Made by a program: the position numbers and the translations under genes. From positions 1-64,000 of the IMG/VR virus record IMGVR_UViG_3300028591_000184: DNA of 64,000 nt, one strand, 5' to 3'. The notes beneath the pieces were generated by a model. It was not told the origin of the DNA, did not search any database, and saw only the letters and a list, made by a program, of their open reading frames with translations. Source of the DNA: a virus (taxonomy: Duplodnaviria; Caudoviricetes). This document shows, in pieces, positions 5,392 to 62,013 of this stretch (the first letter of the stretch is position 1; each line of letters starts with the position of its first letter).

Positions 5392-5401
5392 AAAAACAAC
5401 T

Positions 5402-8706: not shown

Positions 8707-9000
8707 CTATTCTATTACACCGGCCCCTTCTTGTGCTATGGGTAAATTCGGAATTTCCGATTTTTCTTCGTGCGGGTCATACACAAGTGTTTCGTTGTCT
8801 TGCAGGGCTTCTACCTTTTCTTTCAGTTCTGTAATACTGCCTGACATAATTTTTATGTTCTCCTGCATATCCTGTATCATACGGACTGCATTGTAAGCAA
8901 ACTGCGCTGCGCAATACTGCCACTGTGTCCTACGCTCGTTAGGATAGATACGACAATTCAGACAATCGCCCGAACATTGGAATTTCTTTTCTTCTGCCAT
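8707..9000 (-). CDS. Cys-motif coiled-coil protein (operon gene 4)
   Basis: CSGDCLNC...C followed by a heptad-rich segment. Confidence 0.7.
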   Translation of the reverse strand: MAEEKKFQCSGDCLNCRIYPNERRTQWQYCAAQFAYNAVRMIQDMQENIKIMSGSITELKEKVEALQDNETLVYDPHEEKSEIPNLPIAQEGAGVIE

Positions 9001-9065
9001 AGTTTTGATGTTTTTATTTTCGGTCTTTTTCGGTCAACAGAAATAACCGAATTTTTATAGTGCGT

Positions 9066-47013: not shown

Positions 47014-47300
47014 ACCTCACCATGATAACCTAATAACCAAACACGAAAATCCATCACCTTACCAGACTTAAAACACCAGTCACGCCAAGACTTATACTCA
47101 GCGTAACTCACACTATGCTCAACACAGTAAATCAAATCTGACATCCCTAAGATTACTATACCAAAGTAATCCCATGTACCACCTACCTCGTCTATCCAAC
47201 TACCAAGAGATTTATCCAAATCCCATAAACTACACAATAAACCTACCCACTCATCACAAACTTTGTCATAACGAATGCGTAAATCCTCCGAAGATGACAT
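47010..47300 (-). CDS. hypothetical Trp-rich protein
   Basis: W..EVGG...F...IL.M.D...CVE motif; first gene of the leftward operon. Confidence 0.6.
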   Translation of the reverse strand: MSSSEDLRIRYDKVCDEWVGLLCSLWDLDKSLGSWIDEVGGTWDYFGIVILGMSDLIYCVEHSVSYAEYKSWRDWCFKSGKVMDFRVWLLGYHGEV

Positions 47301-47331
47301 AATTAACAAATTATGCGAAAATAATGTGCAA

Positions 47332-47621
47332 ATGAAGGACTATGAAGAACCTATGAAGGATTTTATGAAGGATTTTTTTGCGATAAAACACTGAAAATCA
47401 ATGAAATAAACAACGCACAACACAAAATGTACGCTCAAAACCCCACCTAAAGATTTTCAACTAACCCCGGTACACATTATTTATCTGTCAGAACCCAATG
47501 CAAATTTACAAAAAAATCATGTAAATCGTTCATAAAACAACCAAAAATCCTTTATTTATTATACTTTTTTAATAACTGAACCTTCATAAAAATATTTTTA
47601 AACATTCATAAACATGAAGGA
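47332..47621. repeat. ATGAAG(G/A)A direct and inverted repeats
   Basis: ATGAAGGA/ATGAAGAA at 47332, 47342, 47353, 47365 and 47614; inverted TTCAT copies near 47529, 47583 and 47605. Confidence 0.65.
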
Positions 47622-48154
47622 TAACGACGTTTCTGAAAAGTGTTAGCAAATGTTAAATTGACAGCTGAGAAAAGCGTGAAACAAAAAAAATTGGGAGAAA
47701 AAATTTTTGAGAGGTGACCATCGCCTTTTTGACCCTCTTGGCACCCGTGGGGTGGGGGTGTAAAGATTTTTGATTGTTACTTACACTTCGCCATATAGAA
47801 GTGCTATTTACTTTCAGATTGTTACTTTTTGCCGTTTCATACTACATTATGTTATATAATATAGCGATTTTTTGCTTACAATTAACAAATTTTGGTAAAA
47901 AACCTTGACAAAAACCGCCCTGCGCTTCCCTCACGCTTTCACTTCATGTGAAAAACTTTTGACAAATTAACGATTTATTACAATTTATGTGTCATTTGTA
48001 AAGATTTTTGTCAAAAGTTTAACATTTGGCACTGAATATTTAACTTTAGCCTTATTTGTTTACACTCGTTAACATTTAACTAATTGATTTTCAATTAGTT
48101 ACGCACTTTCAGTTGGTGTAAAAATAGGGTATTGTATGTTTCGATTTATTGTCG

Positions 48155-48162
48155 TACCTTTG
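48155..48162 (+). promoter_or_regulatory. Bacteroidetes promoter for the early rightward region
   Basis: TTG 48132, 20 nt, TACCTTTG 48155. Confidence 0.75.
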
Positions 48163-48253
48163 CAGTACAAAATTAAAGAATATGTTTAACCAAAAGGAGC
48201 GGAACGGCAGCAGGCTCGCTGGCAATGTCAGAATTTAGGCTGTCACAAATATT

Positions 48254-48760
48254 ATGGGTAAAACTAAAGAAACGAAAGTCATGAATGTAGAAAGTGTAAA
48301 AACAGCTATCGAAAACGGTGAGGAGTTAACGTTATCACAGACGATAAACGCTTATCTGGCAATTCACGCAGTGGAACATTACTGCGCTGCCGTTGGTGCA
48401 AATGTGGAAGCAGTGCAGAAGTGTTTAAATTTGTGCCAAAAGGAGGAGGGAGTTTGGTGGCTCTATACCTGTCCTGCCATTGACGGCACGAACTCCGACG
48501 GCACGCAGCAACCGACAAAACAGGAGTGGAAAGAAAAGAACCCTGCTGCCGTAGAAGTGGGAAACATAAACGGGAAGTGCTGGTTTAAGCGTCCGTTTGT
48601 CATTGGTGACGCTCGAGGTGTGCGCAGTGTTGTTGCTGCCTTAGACAATTACACCGAAGCAAAGCGGACTGCAAAAGAGCGTGAAACGGCAAAGATAGCA
48701 GCCGCAGCCGCAGTGCTTGGGGTTGACGTTGAAACGTTGTTAGCTCTGAAAAAGAAGTAA
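48254..48760 (+). CDS. first early gene, hypothetical
   Basis: 168 aa with its own promoter and terminator. Confidence 0.8.
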   Translation: MGKTKETKVMNVESVKTAIENGEELTLSQTINAYLAIHAVEHYCAAVGANVEAVQKCLNLCQKEEGVWWLYTCPAIDGTNSDGTQQPTKQEWKEKNPAAVEVGNINGKCWFKRPFVIGDARGVRSVVAALDNYTEAKRTAKERETAKIAAAAAVLGVDVETLLALKKK

Positions 48761-48787
48761 GAAACGACACGACACGCACGAAAGCAG

Positions 48788-48820
48788 GGAGCACTTAAAA
48801 AAGTGCTCCTTCTTTTCTTT
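48788..48820 (+). terminator. Rho-independent terminator
   Basis: GGAGCACTT-AAAA-AAGTGCTCC followed by TTCTTTTCTTT. Confidence 0.8.
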
Positions 48821-48915
48821 CGCACTTTGTCAAATGTAGCTTGAATTTATTTCAAACGGTTGCAAGCCCGAACAAATACAGAGCAGACAAGTAATAACAA
48901 TTTAAACGAACGAAC

Positions 48916-49227
48916 ATGAACAGAACAGAGAAAATGATGGCTGAGCGTATGAAATGGCGCATCGGTCGTGGCGCAGGCTCGGTAGAGTTACAGCGCAGTG
49001 AATGGCTGAGGAAAACGAGAGCCGAGAGAAAACAGGACAATTCTTCCGTCATCCTCGTTGTTAACGGATGGCTTGAGTATCACCCGCAGACGATACGTCA
49101 GGCAAAAATCGAGGGACTGAGCATTATCAATCAGTTACGAGCCATGCCACACCATAAGCGTGACATCCTGACGGCTGAGGTTTATGACAAGAACACAATG
49201 ATAAAGTTATGGGAGGCAGAGCGATGA
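48916..49227 (+). CDS. hypothetical protein
   Basis: 103 aa after an A-rich leader. Confidence 0.65.
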   Translation: MNRTEKMMAERMKWRIGRGAGSVELQRSEWLRKTRAERKQDNSSVILVVNGWLEYHPQTIRQAKIEGLSIINQLRAMPHHKRDILTAEVYDKNTMIKLWEAER

Positions 49228-49397
49228 ACGAAGAATATTTCCTGTATTTCGGCAGCGGTGGTGGAACATGGCTGCCTTGCGAGAGTATTTTTGATGCTGT
49301 CAGACAGCGTGACGCATACGCAGGGCGTTGCGGTCATTCTGTCAAGGACTGGCACATCATTCAGAGGTTTAACGGATATTGGTTCGATATAGTATGA
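49224..49397 (+). CDS. small hypothetical protein
   Basis: ATGA overlap with the previous stop. Confidence 0.5.
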   Translation: MNEEYFLYFGSGGGTWLPCESIFDAVRQRDAYAGRCGHSVKDWHIIQRFNGYWFDIV

Positions 49398-49431
49398 AAA
49401 AGATATATGAATTTTTTAAGCAAATAAGATT

Positions 49432-49647
49432 ATGTTACATATAGTTGCTGAGCGGTTCCTGAGAATTGCAAACCGCCATTTGAATGAGTCAAAGATTTGG
49501 TCGGAAATATCGAGCAGACAGGAAGATTTTTTCGGCAAACGATACGCGAACAGGAAAGCGAGTGAGCATTTACAGATGGTTAAATACTGGTACATGGCAA
49601 TCGACAATCTACACTACAAGAAAGGAACGTGGGCGTACACGTTCTGA
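49432..49647 (+). CDS. small hypothetical protein
   Basis: 71 aa. Confidence 0.5.
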   Translation: MLHIVAERFLRIANRHLNESKIWSEISSRQEDFFGKRYANRKASEHLQMVKYWYMAIDNLHYKKGTWAYTF

Positions 49648-49659
49648 ACAACACAGAGC

Positions 49660-49910
49660 ACACTCAGTACGATAACTGAGTGTAATGTGGCTACCGATTT
49701 ATCGGTACTGGTTGCAAGCCCAGACAGACAACATTCAAGCGGTTAGAGCGTATGCCGAGGGGCGCAAGTCATAGCGGCAGCCGTTACGCAGGTGAAACCG
49801 ATAGCGAACGAAGACACATGGTGTCGGGCGTCGTGAAAGGGGAGTAGCCGAGAGGACAGCAGCCTGACGGCTGAAATGGTGAGCGACATGTCTACGTCCC
49901 GGTTCCTCTT
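49660..49910 (+). ncRNA. candidate GNRA-rich structured RNA
   Basis: ORF-free; hairpins capped by GCAA, GAAA and GAGA; begins ACACTCAG-TACGATAA-CTGAGTGT. Confidence 0.4.
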
Positions 49911-50639
49911 AAAAAATCATATTCTTTTAGATTATTATCTCATCTCGTGATGAGAGTACGATAATAGCCGGATGGCTACTTTCCGAGAGCGACTGCGTTA
50001 GCGCAGTACGATAAATCAGCGGATTTGTCGTGGTGGTTCCCGCCAAAAGTACGATAATTCATTTAATCACTTTAGCAGATTATCGGGTCGTGTGCTTTTT
50101 GAGCAGTACGATAATTGCCTCGTTTCAGTCTGATTTGATGTCGGGCTGGGCGTTGGTTGAGAGTTGTGTTGTTCGGGTACGATTACGGCTGCGTTGAAAG
50201 ATATTACGGGTGTAAGACCCACAGCATAAAGAATGGTTGGCAGAGGATTCAAAAACTGCCATTATCCCACGGTTGCGAGTGAAGATGCCGAAAGGGTCTC
50301 GCAGGAGAGAATGAAAACGATAATAAAAACGAAGTGGGAGAGACTACGAGAGCAGTACGATAATTCCGTATTGCTCTTGCCACAACCCAACTAAAAGTTA
50401 TGAAAAGAGTACTTTTGCATTTGCAGGCATTGGCATTATTTCTTCCGTGCCTGCTCGTTTTGAGCGATGGGCATTTCCTTGTGAATGTCCTCGGAGTTGT
50501 TTATGTGGCGGTTTTGTACCGCCTGAGTAGTACGAGAAAGGGAAAGAAATTCTTTCTCAGATACTACCATGAAATTCTCCGTTTGGAGAACATGATGTAG
50601 TCTTTCGCTGTGCATACCTGTCGGTGTGCGCAGTACGAT
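49667..50639 (+). repeat. hairpin+GTACGAT(AA) array
   Basis: GTACGAT at 49667, 49956, 50006, 50049, 50106, 50177, 50355 and 50633, all on +, mostly at the 3' base of a variable hairpin. Confidence 0.8.
50400..50600 (+). CDS. small two-TM membrane protein (cassette)
   Basis: Two hydrophobic helices; stop TAG overlaps AGTCT. Confidence 0.65.
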   Translation: MKRVLLHLQALALFLPCLLVLSDGHFLVNVLGVVYVAVLYRLSSTRKGKKFFLRYYHEILRLENMM

Positions 50640-50825
50640 ATTTTTCGGGTATAGATTTTTGAAGGCGAAGTCCTCTTGAGCCGTCCCGCCTGTGTTGTGA
50701 GCAGGGAAAACGACTGAAAATCGGACGCACGGAAGGAAAACCGTAAGACAATAAAACCTGAGCGAGTCTCGTAGGGGAGTGCGATAATACTCTCCTCTAT
50801 TTTATAAACCAACTAAAATAGAGTT

Positions 50826-51056
50826 ATGACAAATTATCGTTGCATCGTGACCATGAAGAATGGTTCACACAAAATCGTGCGCATGGCAAAGAATGTCATG
50901 GCACATGTAGTTTATGAGTTCAGAAAATATCAGCAGAGCATATTCAGCGACATTGTGTTGCTGGAGTTGCCGGCTGACGTATGGTTGTTGCTGAACGAGG
51001 TAAAGAACCTCGTTTTTATCAACGAGTACACGGGAGAGAAGCTTGAGATTGCGTAG
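50826..51056 (+). CDS. hypothetical (cassette)
   Basis: 76 aa bounded by junction motifs. Confidence 0.65.
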   Translation: MTNYRCIVTMKNGSHKIVRMAKNVMAHVVYEFRKYQQSIFSDIVLLELPADVWLLLNEVKNLVFINEYTGEKLEIA

Positions 51057-51104
51057 TCTTTCGGGAGTCTTGCATGGCTCCCACAGTTTAACCAATTAAA
51101 AGTT

Positions 51105-51290
51105 ATGAAAATTTACAAGATTGTGCACGACCCTGGCGGTTGGTGTGTAGCCTATTTCGCAGGCTTGCACGAGAATGGCGAAAGCCGTTGGCACAGAATT
51201 TCCAACCTCTACATGTACAGAGGTTGGGCTCAGGCGTTTGCTCGTAGGATGAAGATAAAAGTCATCAACTACGAGAGTTATTTCAAGTAG
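51105..51290 (+). CDS. hypothetical (cassette)
   Basis: 61 aa bounded by junction motifs. Confidence 0.65.
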   Translation: MKIYKIVHDPGGWCVAYFAGLHENGESRWHRISNLYMYRGWAQAFARRMKIKVINYESYFK

Positions 51291-51366
51291 TCTTTTCGGC
51301 ATGGGTGGGTTTTATTCGTTCGTTTGCCCGCCTGTGCTGACTATGTTTAACCAAAGAAAAGATGAT

Positions 51367-51573
51367 ATGAAGTATTTCAGAGTAAAAAAAGAGTACGATA
51401 ATGTTCGCAGGAACGATGTCGACATATTGGTACAGAATGAGTTGTATACAGAACGAGAGGTAGACAGGTTCAAAATACCTAAGAAGTATCTCGCCGTTGT
51501 CAACGTACGGAAGAACGACACATATTGGTTTTTCGGAGCACGTTTCTCGTCTGATGTTCCATATTCATCCTAA
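51367..51573 (+). CDS. hypothetical phage protein (cassette)
   Basis: MKYFRVKKEYDN...ELYT...YWFFGARF. Confidence 0.7.
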   Translation: MKYFRVKKEYDNVRRNDVDILVQNELYTEREVDRFKIPKKYLAVVNVRKNDTYWFFGARFSSDVPYSS

Positions 51574-51631
51574 AGTCTCAGCAGCCATAAAACGGCTGCG
51601 CTATTGTTTAACCAACTAAAAGTAAAAGAGT

Positions 51632-53323
51632 ATGTTATTTTTTAAAAATGCGTTTAAGAACTACGAGGAGTTCAAGGAACTCTTCGGAGTACAGGAACAC
51701 GGCAACGGAGAGAAGTCTCGTAGAAACAAAATCCTTCTGTCCTTGTATAAAAGCAAGGACATCTTGCACATGATGGCAAATCAGAAGGAGGTCTTCGAGA
51801 AAGGCGACTTTCGTTGGCTCTGCCGAAAGGAGTACCCGATGGGTGTAAGTTTCTACGACATAACGAGCATGACCTCGTTAGGTTTTGAAATTATGCACCT
51901 CCTCAAGAATGAGAGTTCTATGAGAGGTGTCTACTACCTTGACATCCCGCTTCTCGGGTCTGTAAAAAGTAGTCTGTTTGAGTCAGACGACTTTCACGGA
52001 TTGTGCGAGGATGGCGATGTCCGTTCCATCCGCTACGTCAACGTAGAGCGCCAGCGTGTCTTCAAGATGCGCGCAGGAAAATTCATGCGTAAGCTGATTG
52101 AGGAAAACGTGCGTCTCGACCAAATTCTTCCCGAGCAGGTGAAGATATGGTTCTGTGAGGATTTTGCCGAACGTTGGAAGGCGTATGCCTCCAACGAAAT
52201 CAACGACGACAGATATACGCTGTTTGTCAACGACAACTTCGAGGACATCTACGACAGCGGACGCTGCCGAGGAGATTTCGGCTCCTGCATGGTCAATGAT
52301 GGCTACTGGACTTTCTACCGAGATAGCGTGAAGGCGAAAGCCGCCTATCTGGAGGATAAAAACGGTGACATCGTCGCCCGTTGCATCATCTACACCGAGG
52401 TGCACGATGGTCTTGGAAATATCCTCCGCCTTGCTGAGCGTCAGTATTCGTCAGATGGTGACGAGACGCTGAAACGTTTGCTTGTCATGCGCCTCATCGG
52501 GGGTGGTCACATCGACGGCTACAAGCGTGTTGGTGCTGACTGTCATTCGCCGAAGGCGTTTGTCGATACCGACGGCAATGCGCTGAAGAATTGTGACCTT
52601 TGGATAGATTGTAATCTGAGAGACTACGATACCGTATCTTATCAAGACTCGTTCAAGGATTACGAACCTGACGAGTGTGTTGCAAGAAATTGTGACTCGA
52701 TTGATAACCTATCCATCACGGATGGGGTTTTCAATAGAGGCGAGTGGTCTGAGTACCACGATGAGTATATCTCCGAAAACGACGCATATTACGTCGAAAC
52801 AAGAGATGACTATTTCTATTATAACGAGGTAGTCAGTGCCAGCGTAATGCGGAATGGTAGGTATTATTCCGAGTACTGTTTCGAGGAAGACTGCGTCGAA
52901 ATCGGCAATAATTATTACTACGCCGGTCACAATGCAGAGGACTACGAGGACTATGGCATCGGACGATGCCCTGAATGTGGTAACTACTTCCTTGAAGACT
53001 GCGGGCATTATTCAGATGTCACAGACGAAACATACTGTGACTATTACTGTCTTCAAAAGGCAGAACAACGTTACAAGGAAGATAACTGGTTCTACTCAGA
53101 GTACGACGATGACTATTACGAGGACGGTGATGAAGTTGTGACGGCATGGAAGTGGGATTTTCTGCTCCACCGCTATGTGGAAACATCCATCCATTGCGAC
53201 TCTCTCAAAGAACTCTTTGAGGTCAATGAGGCTTCCTATTTTGAAGGGAGGTATTACCTCGACAAAGTCGGCTTCGACGGTGAACCTGCGCACATTGCCG
53301 CCGCCCAGCTCCATGTCGCTTAA
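51632..53323 (+). CDS. large hypothetical protein with SCM motif and acidic Cys/Tyr-rich C-terminus (cassette)
   Basis: GDFGSCM...AAYL...IVARCIIY...ERQYS core; CPEC and CDYYC repeats. Confidence 0.8.
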   Translation: MLFFKNAFKNYEEFKELFGVQEHGNGEKSRRNKILLSLYKSKDILHMMANQKEVFEKGDFRWLCRKEYPMGVSFYDITSMTSLGFEIMHLLKNESSMRGVYYLDIPLLGSVKSSLFESDDFHGLCEDGDVRSIRYVNVERQRVFKMRAGKFMRKLIEENVRLDQILPEQVKIWFCEDFAERWKAYASNEINDDRYTLFVNDNFEDIYDSGRCRGDFGSCMVNDGYWTFYRDSVKAKAAYLEDKNGDIVARCIIYTEVHDGLGNILRLAERQYSSDGDETLKRLLVMRLIGGGHIDGYKRVGADCHSPKAFVDTDGNALKNCDLWIDCNLRDYDTVSYQDSFKDYEPDECVARNCDSIDNLSITDGVFNRGEWSEYHDEYISENDAYYVETRDDYFYYNEVVSASVMRNGRYYSEYCFEEDCVEIGNNYYYAGHNAEDYEDYGIGRCPECGNYFLEDCGHYSDVTDETYCDYYCLQKAEQRYKEDNWFYSEYDDDYYEDGDEVVTAWKWDFLLHRYVETSIHCDSLKELFEVNEASYFEGRYYLDKVGFDGEPAHIAAAQLHVA

Positions 53324-53392
53324 TTAAGTCTCTAAGGGTGTGTCTTGCATGACACATCCGCTATATATAAACCAACTAAAATTTTATAGAAT

Positions 53393-54403
53393 ATGAACAA
53401 AGAATTATTATTCAATTTGTATGCCATCCACTCTCCGAGTGGTGGTGAGAAGAAGATGCGCAAGTTTATCAAAAGGTACATCGCACAGAACTGCGGTGAG
53501 GTAGAGGTCGTACAGGATGCTCTCGGCAATCTGTTATGCACGAAGGGGGTCTCTGACACCTATCCATGCCTTGCGTCGCACATCGACCAAGTACAGCATA
53601 AGCATTCTCGTGATTTCGTTTGTATCGAGTCACAAGGAGTGGTATTCGGTTTTTCTCCGAAATGCCGCGAGCAGCAGGGGCTTGGCGCAGACGACAAGAA
53701 CGGAATTTACATCTGTCTTGAATGTCTGAAAAAATACGATGTCTTGAAAGTTGCCTTCTTTGTAGGTGAGGAGGTTGGATGCGTCGGCTCTTCCGATGTA
53801 GACCTTACGTTCTTCAAGGACTGCAGGTTTATCGTTGAGCCTGACCGCAAAGGTCACGCAGACCTCATTACATCCATGTTTTGCGGTGAGGTATGCTCCC
53901 CTGAGTTTATAGCAGCTATCGGGGGTGACAAGTTCGGCTATCGCGAGGAGCATGGTTCCATCACCGATGTCGGCGAACTTGTCGAGCGTGGTGTTGGAAT
54001 ATCCTGTCTGAACCTGTCTTGCGGCTACTACGAGGCTCACACAGACCAAGAGTTCACGGTTCTGTCAGAACTTGAAAACTGTCATCATTTCGTTGAGACC
54101 ATCATTGAGACCTGTTCTGACGTTTTCCCGTTTGAGTATGTAGATAGATGGGGATATTATAATGGCTACGGTGGCTATTTTGGTGGCTTTCATCACTATG
54201 ATGAAGAATATTGGAACGGAGGGTATTACGATGAGGATTTCGACATGATGACAGAAATCCTCCACTCACGGCCAGGGATGACGTTTGAGGAGGTTTCAAC
54301 CGACTATGGTATCAATTTCTACACGCATAGGATGAGCGAATTGGAAGAAATCTACAATGATGTCAAAGCCCTGATGCGAGATGAAAAGAAGAAAGTCTCT
54401 TGA
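53393..54403 (+). CDS. M20/M28-family zinc peptidase (cassette)
   Basis: SHIDQV, GADDKNG, GEEVG, EPD, GYYEAHT. Confidence 0.85.
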   Translation: MNKELLFNLYAIHSPSGGEKKMRKFIKRYIAQNCGEVEVVQDALGNLLCTKGVSDTYPCLASHIDQVQHKHSRDFVCIESQGVVFGFSPKCREQQGLGADDKNGIYICLECLKKYDVLKVAFFVGEEVGCVGSSDVDLTFFKDCRFIVEPDRKGHADLITSMFCGEVCSPEFIAAIGGDKFGYREEHGSITDVGELVERGVGISCLNLSCGYYEAHTDQEFTVLSELENCHHFVETIIETCSDVFPFEYVDRWGYYNGYGGYFGGFHHYDEEYWNGGYYDEDFDMMTEILHSRPGMTFEEVSTDYGINFYTHRMSELEEIYNDVKALMRDEKKKVS

Positions 54404-54459
54404 GGTGTGTGTGGCGGGAAACCGCCATACACTAACAATATAAACCAAAATATATAATT

Positions 54460-54807
54460 ATGAACGAAGTGTATATCATCGAATTTGAAGCCTACCACCA
54501 TTATAGTGGTACGGATATGGAAAACAGAACCGAAAGGGCTGTCTTTGGTGTCTTCGACACAGGGCGAAGAGCCATCTGCTATCTGCGTCGGTTTCTTGAC
54601 GAGAAAGATAAATACTTAGAGTATTTTGACCACTATCTGAAAACGGAGGAAGATAAAGCTGGCTATATGTCGGCAGAGGCTCGCCGCAGGTATCGGAGTG
54701 AGTGTGAAAGCTACAAAGAACTCGTGACGGAAAGGTTGACGATGCGACGTATGCGTATAAACGAGCTCAGAGCTCCGAGTGAAGAGATAGTCGACCTGTA
54801 TTGTTAG
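54460..54807 (+). CDS. hypothetical (cassette)
   Basis: 115 aa. Confidence 0.65.
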   Translation: MNEVYIIEFEAYHHYSGTDMENRTERAVFGVFDTGRRAICYLRRFLDEKDKYLEYFDHYLKTEEDKAGYMSAEARRRYRSECESYKELVTERLTMRRMRINELRAPSEEIVDLYC

Positions 54808-54850
54808 TCTCTCATGTGACCTGTATGGTCACAGCCAAAAAATAACCAAT

Positions 54851-55174
54851 ATGCAAATCAGATTACAATTCATCAATGGTGTCTTCATGCCGACGGATGC
54901 CGTCAGTATACAGCGTCTTTCCGATACAATCAGGAGAGAGTACATACCGGAAAGCTTGTTTGACAGATATTCGCCAGTTCTCGTAAGAAATGGTTACTCA
55001 CTTTCCGTCGCTGGCTACAATCCAGAACCTACTACTGTGCCTCTTCGTACAACGACGGGATTGTGTGACAATACAAAGCCCGTCTCTAACCCATGTACGA
55101 AATGCCATCTGCGTGAAGTTTGCGACAGCGACGACTGCGGTCGTAAACTGTTCAGTCTCTTTAGCCGTAGATAA
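54851..55174 (+). CDS. hypothetical with C-terminal Cys cluster (cassette)
   Basis: CTKCHLREVCDSDDC. Confidence 0.65.
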   Translation: MQIRLQFINGVFMPTDAVSIQRLSDTIRREYIPESLFDRYSPVLVRNGYSLSVAGYNPEPTTVPLRTTTGLCDNTKPVSNPCTKCHLREVCDSDDCGRKLFSLFSRR

Positions 55175-55212
55175 AATACGGCACGAAACATAACCAATTA
55201 AAACGAAGTGAT

Positions 55213-55494
55213 ATGAATAACAACGCATGGAATTATTACAAGAGAGAAATCAGCCCCGCCGTTTGCAAGCTAAAGGAAAAGGTGTGGCCTAAGCCGTTTT
55301 GGTATGAGGTGTGGATTGACCTCGACGAACGTTTCGATGACGAGGTATGGCCTGCCATCAAAGGCCTGCCCGTTGAAGCAGCTGCAAAGTATGTGCTCGA
55401 CTGGCTTATTAACCAAGAACGTTTCTATTCTTCTCCGAGATACTATCAGATGCTTGACAGATTAGTTGCCGCTGCTGATTTTCAGCCGGCGTAG
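55213..55494 (+). CDS. hypothetical (cassette)
   Basis: 93 aa. Confidence 0.65.
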   Translation: MNNNAWNYYKREISPAVCKLKEKVWPKPFWYEVWIDLDERFDDEVWPAIKGLPVEAAAKYVLDWLINQERFYSSPRYYQMLDRLVAAADFQPA

Positions 55495-55548
55495 TCTTTT
55501 ATCTCCCCTTGCATGGGGAGAGCCATTAACCATAAAAACGAAACGAAT

Positions 55549-55806
55549 ATGAAGAAATTTATCCTGACGTATGTCGGTCTCAGCGATTCCGACTACGAGG
55601 CCAACGGCTACTCAGAAGCATTCCTCTTCGACACCATTGAAGATGCGAGACAACATTTGAAGGTGCTTGCCGAGAGTGAACGTTTCAACTGCGACGACGA
55701 AGGCTCTGAATACGAAATTCTCAAAGACACCGAGGACGAGTATCGTATGTCGTGGAGCGGGCACGGAGAGCAGATACGCCTTCAGATCCACGAGGTAAAT
55801 CTTTAG
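55549..55806 (+). CDS. acidic hypothetical (cassette)
   Basis: 85 aa, 20 D/E versus 8 K/R. Confidence 0.65.
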   Translation: MKKFILTYVGLSDSDYEANGYSEAFLFDTIEDARQHLKVLAESERFNCDDEGSEYEILKDTEDEYRMSWSGHGEQIRLQIHEVNL

Positions 55807-55873
55807 TTTTAGTTGGTTGGGGCGAGGAGGAGAGATACCTCCCGCCCTTTCTATTAACCAAAATTCAAAAAGT

Positions 55874-56098
55874 ATGGCTTACGCAATTTCACTTCAACAA
55901 AAAGGCCAGATTGTCGGGTATTTCTGGCTGACGAAAAAGTCTGCAAAAGTTACCCGCAATCCACACAAAAGACATGGCACTTTCTCTACGCTCTATGAAG
56001 CATTCAGCACTTTAGTATTTGATGCGAGACTACAACAAGTTTACGAAGGTGAATTTTCAAGACTATGCGGTTACAAAAAGAAAATTGTAGAAGTTTAG
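55874..56098 (+). CDS. basic hypothetical (cassette)
   Basis: ATG 55874 after a junction. Confidence 0.55.
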   Translation: MAYAISLQQKGQIVGYFWLTKKSAKVTRNPHKRHGTFSTLYEAFSTLVFDARLQQVYEGEFSRLCGYKKKIVEV

Positions 56099-56156
56099 TG
56101 TGTTCAGGTGCGGCTATGCTAATACATGACTGCACCTACTATCTAACCAAAATGTA

Positions 56157-56507
56157 ATGAATATGACACGAAAACAGATTTCGGCAGCAGAACAGACTCT
56201 GCCACCGTACAGAGAGCGTAGTGCAGAACAAGTGACGTTGGCAAAAGAACTGCGTTGTCGCAACATGATTAACTCTCTCATGATTTACGGCAACATCAAC
56301 AGCCCGTATAACGAACAGACAAAAGAATTTAATTTCTATTTGCATGATTATGTTTCAGGCGATGAGTTTTCTTTTCTTGGAACCAAACGTGTTCTTGAAT
56401 TAGTTCGCGAGCAGCAGGAGGATTTTAAGAAAGCCAAAGTGAATAACAGTGTCTATGTGGATTGTGAGGGTTGTTCTTATAACTCATGCACATGGGCTGA
56501 TGATTAG
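56157..56507 (+). CDS. hypothetical phage protein (cassette)
   Basis: CRNMINSLMIYG...DCEGCSYNS. Confidence 0.7.
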   Translation: MNMTRKQISAAEQTLPPYRERSAEQVTLAKELRCRNMINSLMIYGNINSPYNEQTKEFNFYLHDYVSGDEFSFLGTKRVLELVREQQEDFKKAKVNNSVYVDCEGCSYNSCTWADD

Positions 56508-56563
56508 TCTCGTATGTGGTGATGTCATCACCACAACCACGTCTAACCAAAAACTTTGAAAAT

Positions 56564-56833
56564 ATGATTAAGCAGTATGTAGTATTCGGAGATTATGCGG
56601 CAAACGCCGCATCCGAAGGTAATTTCACGAGAGTGAAAAGAATTTGCGAGGACTCACCGAACTCCATCGGCTACCGCACATTCAAGAGTGAAGAAGAACG
56701 TCAGGCGTACCTTTGCGGACTTGAAGATGCTACGGGATGGATGGAAAGCTATCCGCTTAGCACCGACGAAGTAAAAAAGCTATCCAAACGGATACGTCTG
56801 TCGGGCATTGAAGACCTTGCTGACAAATGGTAG
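56564..56833 (+). CDS. hypothetical (cassette)
   Basis: F.SE.ER.AY..GLED..GW motif. Confidence 0.65.
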   Translation: MIKQYVVFGDYAANAASEGNFTRVKRICEDSPNSIGYRTFKSEEERQAYLCGLEDATGWMESYPLSTDEVKKLSKRIRLSGIEDLADKW

Positions 56834-56884
56834 TCTTACACCCTCTATGTGAGGGTACGATTGTCTAACCCAAAACAAACGGAT

Positions 56885-57109
56885 ATGAGTCAAGAGAAAC
56901 GTCACATTTGGCTTCGCTGCGGCATGACCATCGAAGCCACTCCCGAGGAGGCCGAACGTATCATGCAAGGCGACTCCATCACTTTCGACAATGTTCTTAC
57001 CGAGGGCCGCTACAAGTTTGTCGGCGACAGTTACATTCCCGCCTGCGAGGTCGATGATTACAACGAGACATACGGAACGACTCACCTGAGCCGAAACGTA
57101 GAGTTGTAG
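56885..57109 (+). CDS. hypothetical (cassette)
   Basis: IWLRCGMT...DSYIPA. Confidence 0.65.
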   Translation: MSQEKRHIWLRCGMTIEATPEEAERIMQGDSITFDNVLTEGRYKFVGDSYIPACEVDDYNETYGTTHLSRNVEL

Positions 57110-57154
57110 AGTGTCTTTCGCGCCTACGGGCGCACTATTATTAACCAAAACCTT

Positions 57155-57550
57155 ATGATTATGAGATTACAAGAGAATTTCCAGAATGTGCTCTCCTATG
57201 CCGCAGGCATGGAGGCATGGGTAAACGACAATCTCCCACTCGGTCCGCTGAAGATGACGTTCGCATCAGACTTCGCCATAGCTGATTGGTACGGAGCGAA
57301 AGAGGTAAAGGAAACCTACGAGCGTGTCAAGGCCGAATGGCTCAGCAACTACAAGGCATTTACTGAGGTTGTCATTGCACTGAACATGCTGTCATGGGCG
57401 CACAACACGCTCATGAGGCAAGGTATCGACGGACGTGAGCCGTTCATCAACCTCTATGCCGAGTTATATTATCAATCGAAAGACGACTTCTATGCCAAGT
57501 ACGAAGGCAACGAGGAAGCCTGCGACTACTTCTTCGAGATGACCGATTAG
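57155..57550 (+). CDS. conserved phage hypothetical (cassette)
   Basis: TFASDFAIADWYG...EW...TE....LN..SW helical family. Confidence 0.75.
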   Translation: MIMRLQENFQNVLSYAAGMEAWVNDNLPLGPLKMTFASDFAIADWYGAKEVKETYERVKAEWLSNYKAFTEVVIALNMLSWAHNTLMRQGIDGREPFINLYAELYYQSKDDFYAKYEGNEEACDYFFEMTD

Positions 57551-57604
57551 TCTTTAACCCTCTATTATAGAGGGTACGATGTTTAACCCCTAAAATTAAG
57601 GAAT

Positions 57605-57922
57605 ATGCCAGAAACAGTTAAGACCGATGCAAAGCGCATCAACGAAATCACAGGCCGTCCGATGGCCGAGTGTGAGAACCAGGCAATGCAGATTGCCATG
57701 TGTGTGAAAGCCATGAAAACTCGCATCGTCGAGTTTTACTTCATCAAAAAGGACGGAACGACGCGACAGGCTTTCGGAACCCTTCAGGATGACATCATCC
57801 TGCCTCTCATTAACAGCGATAGTAACCGCCCTGCCAATCCTGACCTCGTCACTTATTTCGATACGGTGGCACAGAACTTCCGCAGTTTTCGCAAGGAGAA
57901 TTTTAAGTCTTACATAGCATGA
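57605..57922 (+). CDS. WYL_2/DUF2693-like SH3-barrel protein (cassette)
   Basis: VEFYFIKKDGTTRQAFGTL...YFD....FRSFR. Confidence 0.75.
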   Translation: MPETVKTDAKRINEITGRPMAECENQAMQIAMCVKAMKTRIVEFYFIKKDGTTRQAFGTLQDDIILPLINSDSNRPANPDLVTYFDTVAQNFRSFRKENFKSYIA

Positions 57923-58122
57923 TGCGCGACAGGGAAGGAAAAATCATTCGTGTTGGAGATTGTGTGCTTTGGCACGACCCAGACGAAGAAACGCGGGATT
58001 TAACTCGCATTTGGGCCATAGATAAAATCTGTGGAGATAACGAAGACTCCATCATCATTATCTCTGATGAGTATGGGAGTGAAGCGGATGTTTTCGGTCA
58101 CGAACTTGAACTTTATTGTTAG
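57919..58122 (+). CDS. small SH3-like protein
   Basis: DREGKIIRVGDCVLW; coupled to the previous gene. Confidence 0.6.
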   Translation: MMRDREGKIIRVGDCVLWHDPDEETRDLTRIWAIDKICGDNEDSIIIISDEYGSEADVFGHELELYC

Positions 58123-58179
58123 CCTCTCTGCCCACGTTTGCAGGCGTGGGCGCATTATTTAACCAAATTTTTCACGAAT

Positions 58180-58560
58180 ATGAGAACCTACACATTTAAG
58201 ACTACCGCAGAGCAGAAAGTGCTCATCAAGAAACTTGTCGAAGCCATCGAAGCCTGCCGCAAGGCCGACATCCAGTTTTTCACAACCGACGGAGCCAACG
58301 AGCTGTTGTGCTACAACTCCACCGACTTCGACCAAGGGCCAGACACCGGTGACAATCTCTCAGGAGAATGGCAGGAAGGAACCGACCACCTCGGCTATCC
58401 GTGCAAGAGGTGGGTACTCACTGACAAGGCAGAACTTGCCGGATGGATGGAAATCCCCATCGCCGACTGCGACATCATCGACGGCGAAGCTATCGGCGTA
58501 GACTTCGTGTCGTGGGGTTGCTGCAATGACGGCTTCTTCGCCCACAAGAAGCAAGTTTAG
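58180..58560 (+). CDS. acidic hypothetical (cassette)
   Basis: ATG 58180 after a junction. Confidence 0.65.
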   Translation: MRTYTFKTTAEQKVLIKKLVEAIEACRKADIQFFTTDGANELLCYNSTDFDQGPDTGDNLSGEWQEGTDHLGYPCKRWVLTDKAELAGWMEIPIADCDIIDGEAIGVDFVSWGCCNDGFFAHKKQV

Positions 58561-58619
58561 TCTCTCAGCCGTACTTGCATGTACGGCGCAATGTTTAACC
58601 AAATAAATATTATGAAACT

Positions 58620-58892
58620 ATGTTACCAAATCAATTAGAAAAGTACACCAATTACAACAGCTATCTTATCGGCTACAGGAAAGGACAGCATGAAGTCAAC
58701 GAGCAAAGGCTGATGAAATTCATCGGAGTTCTGATAAAGAAGTATAAGAACCCCTACATCAGGTTCATGTGGGTGTCAAATGCAGACAAGCCGATGTGCG
58801 TAATTTATTCTGACGTCAAGAAGATGGAACGTGCAACAAAACTCATCCCTTTCGATGAAGCGGAAAATAACATCACGGAGGAGGGTGTATGA
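58620..58892 (+). CDS. hypothetical (cassette)
   Basis: 90 aa. Confidence 0.6.
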   Translation: MLPNQLEKYTNYNSYLIGYRKGQHEVNEQRLMKFIGVLIKKYKNPYIRFMWVSNADKPMCVIYSDVKKMERATKLIPFDEAENNITEEGV

Positions 58893-59185
58893 CGGAATAC
58901 AAACAGCTCATCTATAAGGTTGAGGACACGTTTATCCTCGGTAAAACATTACCTGTGGTGGCTATGCGACAGCTGCCGAAGTTGGCGGAACAGTTTGCGG
59001 CCCTTCCAGACAGTCCGCTGTATATCAACGGAACACAGAAAGCAATCGCGTCTGGTATTATGACGTTCTATAACACCAATAAACGCTTCATGGATGACGA
59101 ACAAGAACTGTTTGAAGCCTTCAACGTGGCGTGCAAGATGCACCATCACAGCAGATACACGCTCAGACTTTTTGAAGCGCGTTAG
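58889..59185 (+). CDS. hypothetical
   Basis: 98 aa coupled to the previous gene. Confidence 0.6.
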   Translation: MTEYKQLIYKVEDTFILGKTLPVVAMRQLPKLAEQFAALPDSPLYINGTQKAIASGIMTFYNTNKRFMDDEQELFEAFNVACKMHHHSRYTLRLFEAR

Positions 59186-59242
59186 CCTCTCGGAAACCTG
59201 CCACAAAAGACAGGTTTCACCATAAACCAAAACCAAAGAAAT

Positions 59243-59929
59243 ATGAATGAACTTGTAAAAAACATTGAGTCTTTTGCATATAAGTATGGCAAAGAAAACA
59301 AGCAGGTTATGCGTGATTTGTTAAAGTATATTATCGGATATTTTAACCCTGAGCGAACGCCTGACACAACATGGAAATATAGCAAAGAACAGAATGCTGA
59401 GTTCCATCGGATGATGCAGCAATACTTCATCCTCATGGGTGAACAACTCAAGAAGAAAGAGTGGTATGACGCATGGGGTGACATCTTCATGTGGTTCACA
59501 CCAAAGGGAGGCGCAAGAGGGCAATTCTTTACGCCTGACAATATCTGCGACCTCATGGCGCAATGCAACATCAATACAGACACAGAACCGACCATCTTGT
59601 GTGGCGCATTCGGAAAGAGAGTGACAATCAGCGACCCAGCCGCAGGCTCCGCACGAAACCTCCTCGCATCACACGCACGCTTCATTCGTGATAATAAGCG
59701 AAAGCCTTATCTTGTGGCCGAAGACATCGACCTCGACTGCTGCCGCATGTCAGCAGTCAATATGATGGCTCATGGATGCTTCGGTGAGGTGATATGCCAC
59801 AATACACTCGCTGACCCGAAAGGACTTGTAGTTGGATATATCATCAATGAAGGCCTATACCCAATGCAACCAGGCATCCCTACCATCAGAGTCAAACACG
59901 AACCACAATGGTTCGTATCACTACGCTGA
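59243..59929 (+). CDS. HsdM-like N-6 methylase fragment lacking catalytic NPP(F/Y) (cassette)
   Basis: GQFFTP, SDPAAGSA, EDID...NM, HNTL are present; no motif IV before the stop. Confidence 0.75.
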   Translation: MNELVKNIESFAYKYGKENKQVMRDLLKYIIGYFNPERTPDTTWKYSKEQNAEFHRMMQQYFILMGEQLKKKEWYDAWGDIFMWFTPKGGARGQFFTPDNICDLMAQCNINTDTEPTILCGAFGKRVTISDPAAGSARNLLASHARFIRDNKRKPYLVAEDIDLDCCRMSAVNMMAHGCFGEVICHNTLADPKGLVVGYIINEGLYPMQPGIPTIRVKHEPQWFVSLR

Positions 59930-59999
59930 GTCTCTATCATCTTATTGGCAGCAATAAGATGGTCAAATAACCAATTAACAATTATTACGACTCAACCTG

Positions 60000-60254
60000 C
60001 GACACAACAAGTGACACAATTAACACATTGTGTTACAAAGGGTTACGATTAATGGTGACACAAGCAGTGACACAGCAAGTGACACAGCAAAACACCAAAA
60101 CCCCTTAAAACCGCACTTAAAAGTCTGAATTTTTGTAAAATTCCTTTTATATACTTTAATTGCCGTATGAAAGTGACACAGCAAATGACACAACTAAGTT
60201 ATTATATATCAACTTGTTATGTAAAGTGGTGACACAGCAAATGACACAACTAAG
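60000..60254 (+). repeat. second iteron cluster
   Basis: TGACACA at 60012, 60056, 60068, 60080, 60174, 60186, 60230, 60242 (12-bp period within groups). Exact 26-bp repeat at 60173 and 60229. IHF-consensus TATCAACTTGTTA at 60207-60219. Confidence 0.8.
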
Positions 60255-60357
60255 AAAGAAAAAAAAGAAAAAAGAAAAATAGAAAAAAAGAAAAATCCCC
60301 CCACACCCCCTTATAAAGAAAAAATAGAAAAAAGAAAAAATAAAAAAAATAAAGAAA
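60254..60357 (+). other. strand-biased A-rich tract with CCCCCCACACCCCC core (unwinding-element-like)
   Basis: Seen directly, next to the iterons. Confidence 0.5.
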
Positions 60358-60463
60358 CTCTTTGGTCAAAAAACCGTTTTTTTTGCTTTTTTCATAAACG
60401 GAAACCAATCTATCCCACAAAACGTAATCGTATTATAAAAATATTATTAACTTTGCAAACGAT

Positions 60464-61549
60464 ATGGACATCATTATCAAAGGACTCGACTACGAGCAGA
60501 TGCGAAAGTTTCGCAACGCTATATCATACGGATATTTCAACGCCTACGAGCTAAACCCGCGTGAATGGCGGCATACTTTCGTCGGCGCGTTTATCTGGAA
60601 ATACCCAGGGCGCGTGAAACTGATGAACACAATTCGTCAGATTGTCGGACATGTACCAACATGGGAAGACATGGATGAAACGACACTAAAAGACCTCGTA
60701 GAAGAACTCAAAGAGCAGGGTCTTGCACCATCAAGTATCTACACGATGTGCTCTGAACTGAAAGCTGTCCTCAACAGCAACTACAAACGCATACCATGCA
60801 GCAGAGAAGATTTAACGCAAATACTATCGGTCAAGAAAAACGCATCACAGGCTATTTATCTGACACGAGAAGAAATGCAGCTAATCGTTGACTATAAGCC
60901 AGTCGGCGAACTTCAGCATTATGTGCAAAGAAATTTCGTCGTTGAAATGCTGACTGGCGCACGAAGGGTAGATGCTGAAAGACTCACACTCAACAACTGC
61001 GACCCGAACTCTGGCATATTGTCTTATATCCCACAAAAAACACCAAACATCATCGTTCGTGTACCCATCGACGAAAGAATGGGTCTGAGAAGGTTCCTCG
61101 TTAACACAACAAGACGGGAAACGTGTGCAGACGTGTTCAACGAAACACTACGCATCATCTGCAGAAACTGCGGAATAAACGACATGACAACGGTGACAAG
61201 GGCCAACAAGACGATTACCACGGAAAAGTGGAAACTTATATCGTCACACACAGGAAGACGCTCGTTCGCAACAAACCTGTTCCTTGCTGGCGTGTCATTG
61301 GAAGACATCGCCATGATGATGGGACACGGAAAGAACATCGAGACAACGAAACGTTATATCTGTGCAGAACGTGCAGCAACGCCCGCCGTAATAGCTTATT
61401 TCCAGCAAGTAGACGCTGATAAGCAGTCCGAGCAGTACAAAAAAGCATACAACGATGCCATCGACGATGTCTTTGAGATACTTGACACTACGGCAATGCT
61501 CGACAAGGACGGAATTATATATCGAGAGATACATGCACTCAAAAAATAA
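60464..61549 (+). CDS. tyrosine recombinase
   Basis: TGARR, K, SHTGRRSFATNL, MGHG, RY catalytic set; TAACTTTG promoter box at 60448. Confidence 0.9.
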   Translation: MDIIIKGLDYEQMRKFRNAISYGYFNAYELNPREWRHTFVGAFIWKYPGRVKLMNTIRQIVGHVPTWEDMDETTLKDLVEELKEQGLAPSSIYTMCSELKAVLNSNYKRIPCSREDLTQILSVKKNASQAIYLTREEMQLIVDYKPVGELQHYVQRNFVVEMLTGARRVDAERLTLNNCDPNSGILSYIPQKTPNIIVRVPIDERMGLRRFLVNTTRRETCADVFNETLRIICRNCGINDMTTVTRANKTITTEKWKLISSHTGRRSFATNLFLAGVSLEDIAMMMGHGKNIETTKRYICAERAATPAVIAYFQQVDADKQSEQYKKAYNDAIDDVFEILDTTAMLDKDGIIYREIHALKK

Positions 61550-61553
61550 CACT

Positions 61554-61853
61554 ATGGAAGAATACAAAAACCGGCACCGCCCACAGGATGATATACCCTA
61601 TGAGCGCAGAATGTTCTACATCATTCAAGACTACCGAAAGATACTGGAGCAGAACGAACAACTTGCGGCTTATTGTAAAAAACTTGAGAAAGAAATCGAA
61701 AAACTCCGACAGAAAAGTACGGAGCAAGGTCTGACAAACAAAAATTTAGCTGAGATATGCACAAAGCGAAGCAGAGAAATCAAGCGGCTGAAAGCACGCA
61801 TAGATTGGCTCGAAGAACAACTCAGACAATACGGACAGCCTCAAGGCAGCTGA
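61554..61853 (+). CDS. coiled-coil hypothetical protein
   Basis: ATG 61554, heptad-rich. Confidence 0.65.
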   Translation: MEEYKNRHRPQDDIPYERRMFYIIQDYRKILEQNEQLAAYCKKLEKEIEKLRQKSTEQGLTNKNLAEICTKRSREIKRLKARIDWLEEQLRQYGQPQGS

Positions 61854-62013
61854 TGGCGGTATTAACCGCCACCTGCCACATATTCAACCACACGATTAAC
61901 GGCCATGTCAATCTTACGCGCGTTACGCCAACTCTTCGAGCAAAATCCGCCTGCGACAGGTTTAATGCTTTCATTAACTCATCAATTCTGTCTTTAACTA
62001 AAAGCTCATTCAT
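61822..62013 (-). CDS. short Cro/CI-type HTH protein (candidate repressor, possibly truncated)
   Basis: RIDELMKALNLSQADFARRVGVTR; divergent from the cro-like gene. Confidence 0.6.
   Translation of the reverse strand: MNELLVKDRIDELMKALNLSQADFARRVGVTRVRLTWPLIVWLNMWQVAVNTAISCLEAVRIV

Follow-up and report, generated by a model that had tools for sequence, protein, structure and literature searches.

The DNA analysed here, hereafter the window, comprises the initial 64 kb of one 73,045-bp virus record (IMGVR_UViG_3300028591_000184), which is classed as 'linear' in IMG/VR and rated at 88% completeness by CheckV. It carries an array of small co-oriented genes in which nearly every boundary is occupied by the same composite element, here termed a junction, consisting of a short conserved box at the stop codon, a hairpin, a second conserved box, and a leader that runs into the next start codon. 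The genome codes for terminase, portal protein, major head protein, and primase, and a 2200-amino-acid (aa) open reading frame (ORF) is a tape measure protein (Pfam TMP_3; no PDB match). The phage is therefore a long-tailed siphovirus and not a crAss-like phage with a virion polymerase, and promoters of a crAss-like virion RNA polymerase were ruled out on the same ground; the phi14:2 paper reported no early motif. Counting from a Bacteroidota-type promoter box at 48155, the order is a first gene, a terminator, a P1-type twister ribozyme, three small genes (48916-49647), a P5-type twister ribozyme, an ORF-poor region, and the array (Table 1). Eighteen of the 21 array products match no family; the others are an M20/M42-like peptidase (53393-54403), a WYL_2/SH3-like protein (57605-57922), and an N6_Mtase-like protein (59243-59929).

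The first-pass annotation of the window had claimed that a conserved element separates nearly all of about 20 genes, and this was borne out: 19 complete junctions and one without TAACC lie between 50598 and 59972, all on the + strand. These 20 junctions serve 21 genes, and two gene pairs (57919, 58889) overlap as ATGA with no junction there. The first pass had called the cargo typical of anti-defence and host-takeover genes, which would be a putative role for products of which 18 have no family. The layout is stop codon-AGYCTY, 1-4 nucleotides (nt), a hairpin of 6-14 bp, 4-9 nt, WAACC(A/C)(A/C)nTAAAA, an A-rich leader, and ATG. More fully, the 5′ consensus is (T/G)T-AGTCT(C/T)-T, and the 3′ consensus is WAACC(A/C)(A/C)n(T/A)AAA, after which come an A/T-rich leader and RAWT-ATG; the linker between stem and 3′ box is often CACUAU-like, and ACGAU in two junctions. 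A composite pattern (AG[TC]CT[CT], 12-60 nt, [TA]AACC) scanned over the whole 73,045-bp genome matched 22 times on the + strand, 18 of these within 50765-59972 (13% of the genome), and only twice on the − strand. Three further junctions have degenerate 5′ boxes (Table 1), and 12% of boxes are of the AGCCTY variant.

Table 1. Positions of the junctions and of the features on either side of the array (window coordinates).
Feature	Position	Strand	Details
−7 promoter box, Bacteroidota type	48155..48162	+	TACCTTTG; consensus; predicted start of array operon
Canonical terminator	48786..48811	+	Hairpin and T-run, after first early gene (48254-48760)
Twister-P1-type ribozyme	48828..48889	+	47.2 bits, E 6.6e-9, under Rfam cut-off of 67
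Twister-P5-type ribozyme	49652..49723	+	39.7 bits, over Rfam cut-off of 37.6
Conserved ORF-poor region	49724..50399	+	About 680 nt, second twister to first array gene
Array ORFs	50400..59929	+	21 co-oriented, 61-563 aa
Junction 0	50598..50642	+	TAGTCTT, hairpin, then GTACGATATT (GTACGAT) replacing TAACC
Junction 1	50765..50810	+	AGTCTC, hairpin, AAACC
Junction 2	51055..51093	+	TTGCAT loop
Junction 3	51289..51352	+	14-bp G-U-rich long hairpin; orthologues in four relatives, UG to CG or UA
Junction 4	51574..51613	+	Found by pattern and fold
Junction 5	53327..53373	+	TTGCAT loop
Junction 6	54394..54446	+	Box within ORF end, stop TGA after box
Junction 7	54806..54847	+	TAACC just 3 nt ahead of ATG
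Junction 8	55154..55195	+	ORF stop within hairpin
Junction 9	55493..55531	+	TTGCAT loop
Junction 10	55805..55859	+	Degenerate box AGTTTT; same hairpin behind family F4 genes of L007 and L011
Junction 11	56097..56148	+	Degenerate box AGTGTG
Junction 12	56506..56548	+	Found by pattern and fold
Junction 13	56832..56870	+	Near-duplicate of junction 15; GTACGAT behind hairpin
Junction 14	57110..57146	+	Degenerate box AGTGTC
Junction 15	57549..57588	+	Near-duplicate of junction 13; TAACCCCTAAAA leader
Junction 16	58121..58164	+	Box AGCCTC; same hairpin follows a different ORF in L045
Junction 17	58559..58600	+	TTGCAT loop
Junction 18	59184..59228	+	Box AGCCTC
Junction 19	59929..59972	+	Terminal, no ORF downstream
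TGACACA iterons, then long A-rich tract	59990..60400	+	Origin- or incompatibility-like; outside the junction system
−7 box and generic tyrosine recombinase	60448..61549	+	Box TAACTTTG at 60448; recombinase 60464-61549

All 19 complete junctions fold better than dinucleotide shuffles (z −1.7 to −5.1, mean −3.05). When 62 junctions from five phages were pooled, the distance from box to stem was 1-4 nt in 58 and that from stem to WAACC 4-9 nt in 57, and stems mostly had 6-14 pairs. The first pass had described stems that differ but stay paired and a recurring TTGCA(T) loop, and the loop was seen where it had placed it; in the pooled set, a C-TTGCAT-G loop occurs in 13 of 62 junctions, on unrelated stems. 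The terminal junction, too, is as it had been reported, being geneless and abutting the TGACACA iterons and the tyrosine recombinase. TAG ends 14 of the 21 array genes vs 12 of 71 other ORFs; fourteen TAG ends on the motif had been claimed, and 13 of the 14 found overlap the box. Since the box is present irrespective of stop position and frame (the stop lies 5 nt upstream of it at 53327, downstream of it at 54394, and inside the hairpin at 55154), it is more than stop context, and the box drives the use of TAG rather than following from it.

A MAFFT alignment of 45 junctions lost the stem register, and per-junction folds and orthologous hairpins were used instead of a covariance model. No Rfam family reached its gathering score on any junction in the window, and at E values up to 1 none matched the four junctions within 47300-51400 (50598, 50765, 51055, and 51289). 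Several known motifs were tried and rejected. The GUC of the 5′ box and UAA of the 3′ box raise the idea that a junction is a member or substrate of the hammerhead, hairpin, pistol, or twister families; this has no Rfam support, and the flanks misfit the respective cores. A sigma54 −24/−12 reading of the TTGCA loop was ruled out by eye, with no GG at the needed spacing, and mimicry of a tRNA-Ala anticodon arm by the differing loop of the host spacer tRNA-Ala. As for a nut-like boxA plus boxB, the boxA of the host rrn leader is GAGTTCTTTGAAAG, with which the junction box agrees at only about 6 of 10 positions.

The hairpins show a marked strand preference. Folding of the inner segments of the 62 junctions gave 59 G-U pairs on the sense strand vs 20 on the antisense strand (binomial p = 1.3e-5), and among 69 unfiltered segments matched by the pattern the sense strand was the more stable in 48 and the antisense strand in 18. 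Five phages share an orthologous long hairpin behind gene family F3. In every one of them three pairs are G-U, most of them have further wobbles, and two of these become CG or UA in some; read on the opposite strand, the wobble pairs are A-C mismatches. Because G-U pairs so strongly favour the sense strand, the hairpin is probably selected there, most simply as RNA.

As for the transcriptional context, exact intergenic TAnnTTTG boxes near the array on the + strand occur only at 48155, 60448 (ahead of the recombinase), and 62099, and none lies within the array; a TAACCAA box follows the first of these at 48187. No sigma factor or single-subunit RNA polymerase was detected in the phage, and PF00940 (phage RNA polymerase) matched nothing in it, nor anything in the control genomes. 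N4-type hairpin promoters and other phage RNA polymerase promoters were set aside, no reading polymerase having been found and the 2200-aa ORF being the tape measure protein.

In the labels used for comparison, W is this phage, L135 the prophage of Prevotella sp. E2-28, and L003 LoVEphage (MW660583.1). The two upstream twisters have predicted cleavage sites at 48832/48833 (P1-type) and 49683/49684 (P5-type), and in both the consensus GGG/CCC pseudoknot is replaced by GCA/UGC, a compensating change. The first has an orthologue at L007:504-565, and the second has orthologues at L007:871-936 and L135:4735-4803. By this prediction the array transcript would be one built to be cut, through self-cleavage upstream, and the twisters raise the prior for a role of the junctions at the RNA level, short of proof. 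The predicted cuts would also free an 851-nt RNA with 5′-OH and 2′,3′-cyclic-phosphate ends. In the engineered 'Tornado' circular-RNA system such ends are joined by the RtcB ligase, and a natural circular mRNA arising from this fragment is conceivable.

The ORF-poor region that follows the second twister holds GTACGAT(A/T) seven times, in most cases at the 3′ foot of one or another hairpin, with an eighth copy in the twister loop at 49667. It carries long invariant blocks, has counterparts at L007:~940-1830, L002:1-600, and L135:~4800-5450, and found no Rfam match over 49724-50399. A large non-coding RNA is one possibility, which might serve as decoy or platform for a binder of 'hairpin + AC(G/U)AU'. 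One block, GGAGAGACTACG (50337-50348), is invariant in four phages (the others at L002:463, L007:1522, and L135:5370), reads as the reverse complement of the consensus 5′ box of the junctions, (G)TAGTCTCTC, and stands directly 5′ of a hairpin that covaries between phages. Ahead of the first array gene, an (A)ACC-type box and a leader come after this hairpin in W, L007, and L135, with a less clear picture in L002. Block and hairpin together would form a 'junction' with an inverted 5′ box, for which pairing in trans, long-range pairing in cis, and an inverted DNA repeat are candidates.

The element is present in all five related arrays (L001, L002, L007, which is identical to L008-L010, L011, and L026/L045), whose recombinases are only 55-59% identical to that of this phage. 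Array proteins of five phages were clustered into families (F1, F3, and so on), and a common backbone order emerged, F5-F6-F3-F7-F8-F9-F4-F1...F12-recombinase. Many array genes are lineage-specific, families F1 and F11 are transposed between phages, and L026/L045 has a G17-like gene ahead of its G16 homologue and a G20-like gene behind the recombinase. The first pass had stated that a gene order fixed across relatives would speak against its proposal; what was found are many gains and losses and several reorderings, whose breakpoints lie no more than about 10 nt from hairpin edges. Judged from these comparisons, the relatives gain, lose, and reorder genes at junctions.

The two halves of a junction keep different company. 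The F3 hairpin remains behind F3 whichever gene comes next, and the F15 hairpin remains behind F15, ahead of F9 in L001 or F18 in L002, with divergence setting in between ...CATTAT and TAACC. On the other side, the WYL_2 gene (F1), the best conserved of the array, keeps its leader TAACCCCTAAAA (TAACCCTTAAAC in L007) behind five unrelated hairpins, and TAACCCCTAAAA is conserved upstream of it in W, L001, L002, and L011. L007 lacks gene 4 of this phage and has the F3 hairpin fused to an F7-type leader inside CTAT/TGTTTAACC. The box-hairpin module is also separable from its upstream gene: an orphan F15-type hairpin stands before F9 in L011, and L045 has the junction 16 hairpin in new company (Table 1). 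These patterns fit a bipartite expression signal in which a 3′ element and a 5′ leader are joined by a short linker, and in which recombination is tolerated nowhere but in that linker; they do not require a dedicated recombinase.

In all five phages F1 and the next ORF, a small one of about 45-67 aa, overlap as ATGA (window 57605-58122; L001:3845-4314; L002:4216-4679; L007:7679-8157; L011:8486-~8950), and where this ORF belongs to the same family (F15; L001, L002) the pair is placed elsewhere in the order than in L007 and L011. One cassette can therefore hold two genes. Directly upstream of F1, a one- or two-gene segment is flanked by junctions with the same stem and few changes in the window (56832-56870/57549-57588), where the first pass had already recognized near-duplicates, and likewise in L002 (3212-3257 and 4154-4198). 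These look like the footprint of a Campbell-type insertion by recombination at the junction. Elsewhere in the array, the 563-aa protein without a family and the M20/M42-like peptidase are adjacent and kept as a pair in four arrays (window 51632-54403; L007:2919-5910; L011:1104-4225; L026:25-2744).

Such gene turnover raises the question of the adjacent tyrosine recombinase. Integron attC sites are variable hairpins with short conserved ends, one per promoterless co-oriented cassette, with a tyrosine recombinase nearby. One of the two explanations offered in the first pass was an analogous capture and shuffling system, in which folded junctions would serve as sites for the adjacent recombinase and cassettes would be excised and inserted. 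The array does resemble attC arrays in its variable stems with short conserved flanking words, its co-oriented promoterless genes, and the tyrosine recombinase with which the array ends in all five relatives; the relatives also vary in which genes they have and in what order, with breakpoints near hairpin edges, near-duplicate junctions surround short segments in both W and L002, and the 3′ box GTYTAAC happens to match the word RYYYAAC. We nevertheless regard this explanation as very unlikely, as it fails on integrase score, orientation, box pairing, array stability, and the existence of the recombinase module without an array. The recombinase is a generic XerC/D-like protein, not IntI, scoring 21 bits against the integron-integrase model TIGR02249 (cut-off 265), with only a 55-residue stretch aligned, and 42 bits against the XerD model (cut-off 330). 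It is co-oriented with the array, lies 3′ of it, and has its own −7 box, in contrast to an integron integrase, which is divergent beside attI and the cassette promoter (Pc); here there is no attI/Pc. The AGTCTY and WAACC boxes are not complementary and pair over at most 3-4 bp (UUAG/YUAA) in a minority of junctions, so that attC-like pairing of the two boxes is ruled out, and their order is the reverse of that in attC. Breakpoints fall on either side of the hairpin rather than at one nucleotide of the junction, the signature that the first-pass annotation had proposed to look for, and the G-U bias of the sense strand favours RNA.

The stability of the arrays points the same way. Nineteen contigs carry the L007 recombinase unchanged, and the four compared over the whole array have 99.7-100% nucleotide identity; two further assemblies of this phage show an identical gene list. 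Array variation was seen only at about 58% recombinase identity, not among close carriers. Moreover, L005:2495-4430 matches window 60322-61919 at 90-95% nucleotide identity (94.6% from 60322 onward); this module of promoter, recombinase, and next small gene stands in an otherwise unrelated context, with no array and no iterons upstream, and the homology begins inside the A-rich tract at 60322. In LoVEphage, which has no such array, a recombinase homologue follows ParA. Because of that arrangement and the iterons here, the gene context points to a plasmid-like maintenance or resolution role for the recombinase.

Recombinase homologues are numerous in contigs of 70-77 kb and occur also in a Bacteroidaceae metagenome-assembled genome and in the complete genome of Prevotella sp. 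E2-28. Behind array and recombinase, relatives carry a second integrase (Phage_int_SAM_5) as well as tRNA genes and host genes, an arrangement that indicates a temperate clade with Prevotella or a close relative as host. The second integrase lies on the opposite strand at L007:11398-13030, L011:11253-12494, and L005:4373-5338; in L007, two tRNA genes stand beside it, where the near-identical contigs L007-L010 part (about 12,870-13,030). The present genome has no Phage_int_SAM_5 integrase after its recombinase, and because of this the phage may be a non-integrating or plasmid-like derivative.

Within the 3.56-Mb chromosome of Prevotella sp. E2-28, 10 of the 14 pattern matches fall inside the prophage array, and a reversed-pattern control gave 0; one of the matches outside looks genuine. 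The leader word TAACCMMYTAAAA occurs six times in the prophage array region and six times in the other 3.5 Mb (control 4). The first pass had held that an element common upstream of host genes would count against it, and the element is near-absent from the rest of the E2-28 genome. The junction is thus a phage element, not a host signal. The outlier, at G001:C1:1051521-1051577 (−; L134), reads TAGTCTC, hairpin, TAACCAATTAA, stands between a gene and small ORFs, and may belong to another mobile element. The element is absent from LoVEphage and Dulem virus 40, whose recombinases are 30-36% identical, and a megablast search of the phage collection gave no match. Pattern scans of viral and genome contigs yielded mostly single chance matches among the matches listed and are uninformative on distribution.

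Short asymmetric sites between the genes of a temperate phage also bring to mind the stoperators of mycobacteriophage L5 and cluster A, which are single asymmetric 13-bp duplex sites found genome-wide and without a hairpin. By analogy, a prophage repressor would bind the boxes, stop the elongating polymerase, and silence the array in lysogens. The phage clade is temperate, and the junctions are asymmetric, aligned with transcription, intergenic, and often over stop codons. In contrast to stoperators, however, their conserved words are only 6-8 bp and split by a spacer of variable length, they are restricted to one array, and they include a selected, strand-biased hairpin that would have no role; no repressor has been linked to them. 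We hold DNA operators of this type to be highly improbable.

The closest named analogue comes from phage expression cassettes. The first-pass annotation had stated that no named system has this element, and here it needs correcting: the promoter-early stem-loop (PeSL) cassettes of T4-type phages (Arbiol et al., 2010, PMC2839356; Comeau et al., 2014, PMC4122927) combine a stem-loop with expression signals in hyperplastic phage regions, and mini-circles have been proposed for insertion at the elements (PMC4122927). Like PeSLs, the junctions are small composite elements repeated between small, mostly ORFan genes of a hyperplastic region, with stem-loop, conserved expression signals, and start codon in that order; relatives show insertions, deletions, replacements, and displacements at the elements, and duplicated copies surround inserted genes. 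PeSLs, however, contain a recognizable host sigma70-type −35/−10 promoter and a Shine-Dalgarno sequence, and the junctions have neither (no TAnnTTTG or TTTG in junctions). Stems of PeSLs are similar within a phage, whereas those of the junctions are unrelated in sequence. The junctions differ further in their extra invariant 5′ box at the stop codon, their occurrence in a temperate Bacteroidota phage, the transcript shared with predicted ribozymes, and conserved words (6-13 nt) too short for ordinary homologous recombination.

If the junctions were PeSLs in the strict sense, each gene would be its own transcription unit, with a weak-terminator hairpin and a phage-specific promoter at the linker and TAACC, read by the host RNA polymerase, perhaps with a phage-encoded specificity factor. 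We consider this rather unlikely. In its favour, besides the PeSL-like order of parts, the leader of the predicted primary transcript at 48155-48195 also holds GTTTAACCAA, the TAACC box of the terminal junction has no gene behind it and could fire into the iterons, and an unrelated phage (L084) has true cassettes of terminator and −33/−7 promoter that end in AACCAATTAAAAC. However, the −33/−7 consensus is absent from the junctions, positions upstream of WAACC are at most 53% conserved, the location of a −33 box is occupied by the variable stem, and in junction 7 TAACC stands 3 nt from the start codon (Table 1); no sigma factor or RNA polymerase to read such promoters was found in the phage. 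Nor do U-runs follow the stems. The first pass had gone further and denied both U-tails and TAnnTTTG boxes: exact intergenic TAnnTTTG is indeed absent, while some tails are moderately T-rich and a loose terminator scan flags four junction hairpins. None presents the G+C-rich hairpin directly followed by a U-run of an intrinsic terminator, the post-stem tails reading CACTAT.... The G-U bias of the sense strand also implies folded RNA, though a terminator hairpin would give the same bias.

We put at about even chances the interpretation that the junctions are RNA-level punctuation between the cistrons of a polycistronic accessory operon, probably read by some factor; cleavage or binding of RNA at the boxes, transcription from 48155, and a stabilizing role are what we infer. 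Transcription would start at the TAnnTTTG promoter at 48155 and run through a long early and accessory operon without internal host-type promoters, and the two predicted twisters would cut the RNA upstream of the array. Each unit would then present a single-stranded 5′ box, (U)AGUCUY(U), on or beside the stop codon; 1-4 nt on, a gene-specific hairpin of 6-14 bp; a linker of 4-9 nt, often CACUAU-like; and WAACC(A/C)(A/C)nUAAAA, opening an unstructured A-rich leader without a Shine-Dalgarno sequence that ends in RAWU-AUG. The hairpin would be the 3′ structure of the upstream message and hold back exonucleases, attenuate weakly, or mark a processing site, and the 3′ box and leader would provide the same translation-initiation context for every downstream gene. 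The constant spacing of two invariant boxes around a stem that can have any sequence implies recognition of 'single-stranded word + any hairpin + single-stranded word' by a factor, which may be a phage or host endoribonuclease or an RNA-binding protein. As a by-product, junctions would be the sites where one- or two-gene cassettes are gained, lost, and moved, as with PeSLs. The other explanation offered in the first pass, a polycistron cut into hairpin-capped monocistronic mRNAs by a sequence-specific RNase, fits the RNA-level side of this proposal, and fits better than the integron-like one in view of the G-U bias, the array's lack of a promoter of its own, and the upstream twisters; the cutting itself is a step that we infer.

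Four points weigh against intercistronic RNA punctuation. A terminator separates the promoter at 48155 from the array, so that read-through, or a second promoter that was not recognized, must be assumed. Neither an RNase nor an RNA-binding protein emerged as a candidate; most proteins of the array and of the early genes lack a family, and the first early protein gave no lead in the ESM Atlas. The variation of the boxes (12% AGCCTY, and three degenerate junctions in the window) means that recognition must be tolerant. Single-stranded DNA also tolerates G-T wobbles, so that a top-strand DNA hairpin would also be compatible with the strand bias.

A more specific form of RNA-level punctuation, which we consider doubtful, is a dedicated mRNA-punctuation system of the phage, in which the conserved upstream RNA guides or decoys the endonuclease or RNA-binding protein that reads the junctions. 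The RNA of about 680 nt, its 5′ end freed by the second twister, would carry seven hairpin-GUACGAU repeats and the four-phage-invariant block GGAGAGACUACG, the exact antisense of the 5′ box (G)UAGUCUCUC. The factor would cut the polycistron into hairpin-capped monocistrons, and the same sites would be cassette boundaries in evolution. We know of no described system for operon processing in which ribozymes and repeated targets come together with a guide or decoy RNA.

Two known kinds of intercistronic hairpin bear on the punctuation reading. In the early region of T7, RNase III sites between the cistrons of a long host-polymerase transcript yield monocistronic mRNAs with a 3′ hairpin, a functional analogue of processing at the junctions. 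The T7 sites are long irregular duplexes, whereas stems of 6-14 bp are too short for RNase III, and here the boxes would be needed for recognition. REP/BIME palindromes are intercistronic hairpins that follow a short conserved word and stabilize the upstream mRNA, and the junctions share the order of word and hairpin; in contrast to that sequence-conserved family of host genomes, every stem here is unique within a phage-specific element.

Translation in Bacteroidota does without Shine-Dalgarno pairing, and little is known of how their phages express long accessory operons. The junction is a compact, portable 'gene separator' with a grammar of sequence plus structure that is maintained throughout a clade of Prevotella prophages. 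Should the boxes prove to be sites of processing or binding, they would represent a new RNA-recognition activity and could provide an insulator part for engineering Bacteroidota. As the junctions delimit exchangeable, mostly ORFan cassettes near the attachment site, gene turnover becomes tractable, and the cultured lysogen Prevotella sp. E2-28 makes the system directly testable.

Two further observations concern signals in other phages. LoVEphage (MW660583.1) has at 7163-9053 another recurring word before ATG, CACCCTTTAAATTTTG..TT-ATG, at times after a hairpin, and related phages may use other 'dialects' of an intercistronic signal. The AT-rich phage L084 (IMGVR_UViG_3300031612_000080) carries on its − strand three near-identical classical cassettes, seen also in L068, that consist of a T-run terminator hairpin, TTTG, the −7-like box TACTTTAT, and the word AACCAATTAAAAC before ATG; the shared word may be a coincidence of the pattern search, or a leader word that is wider among Bacteroidota phages.

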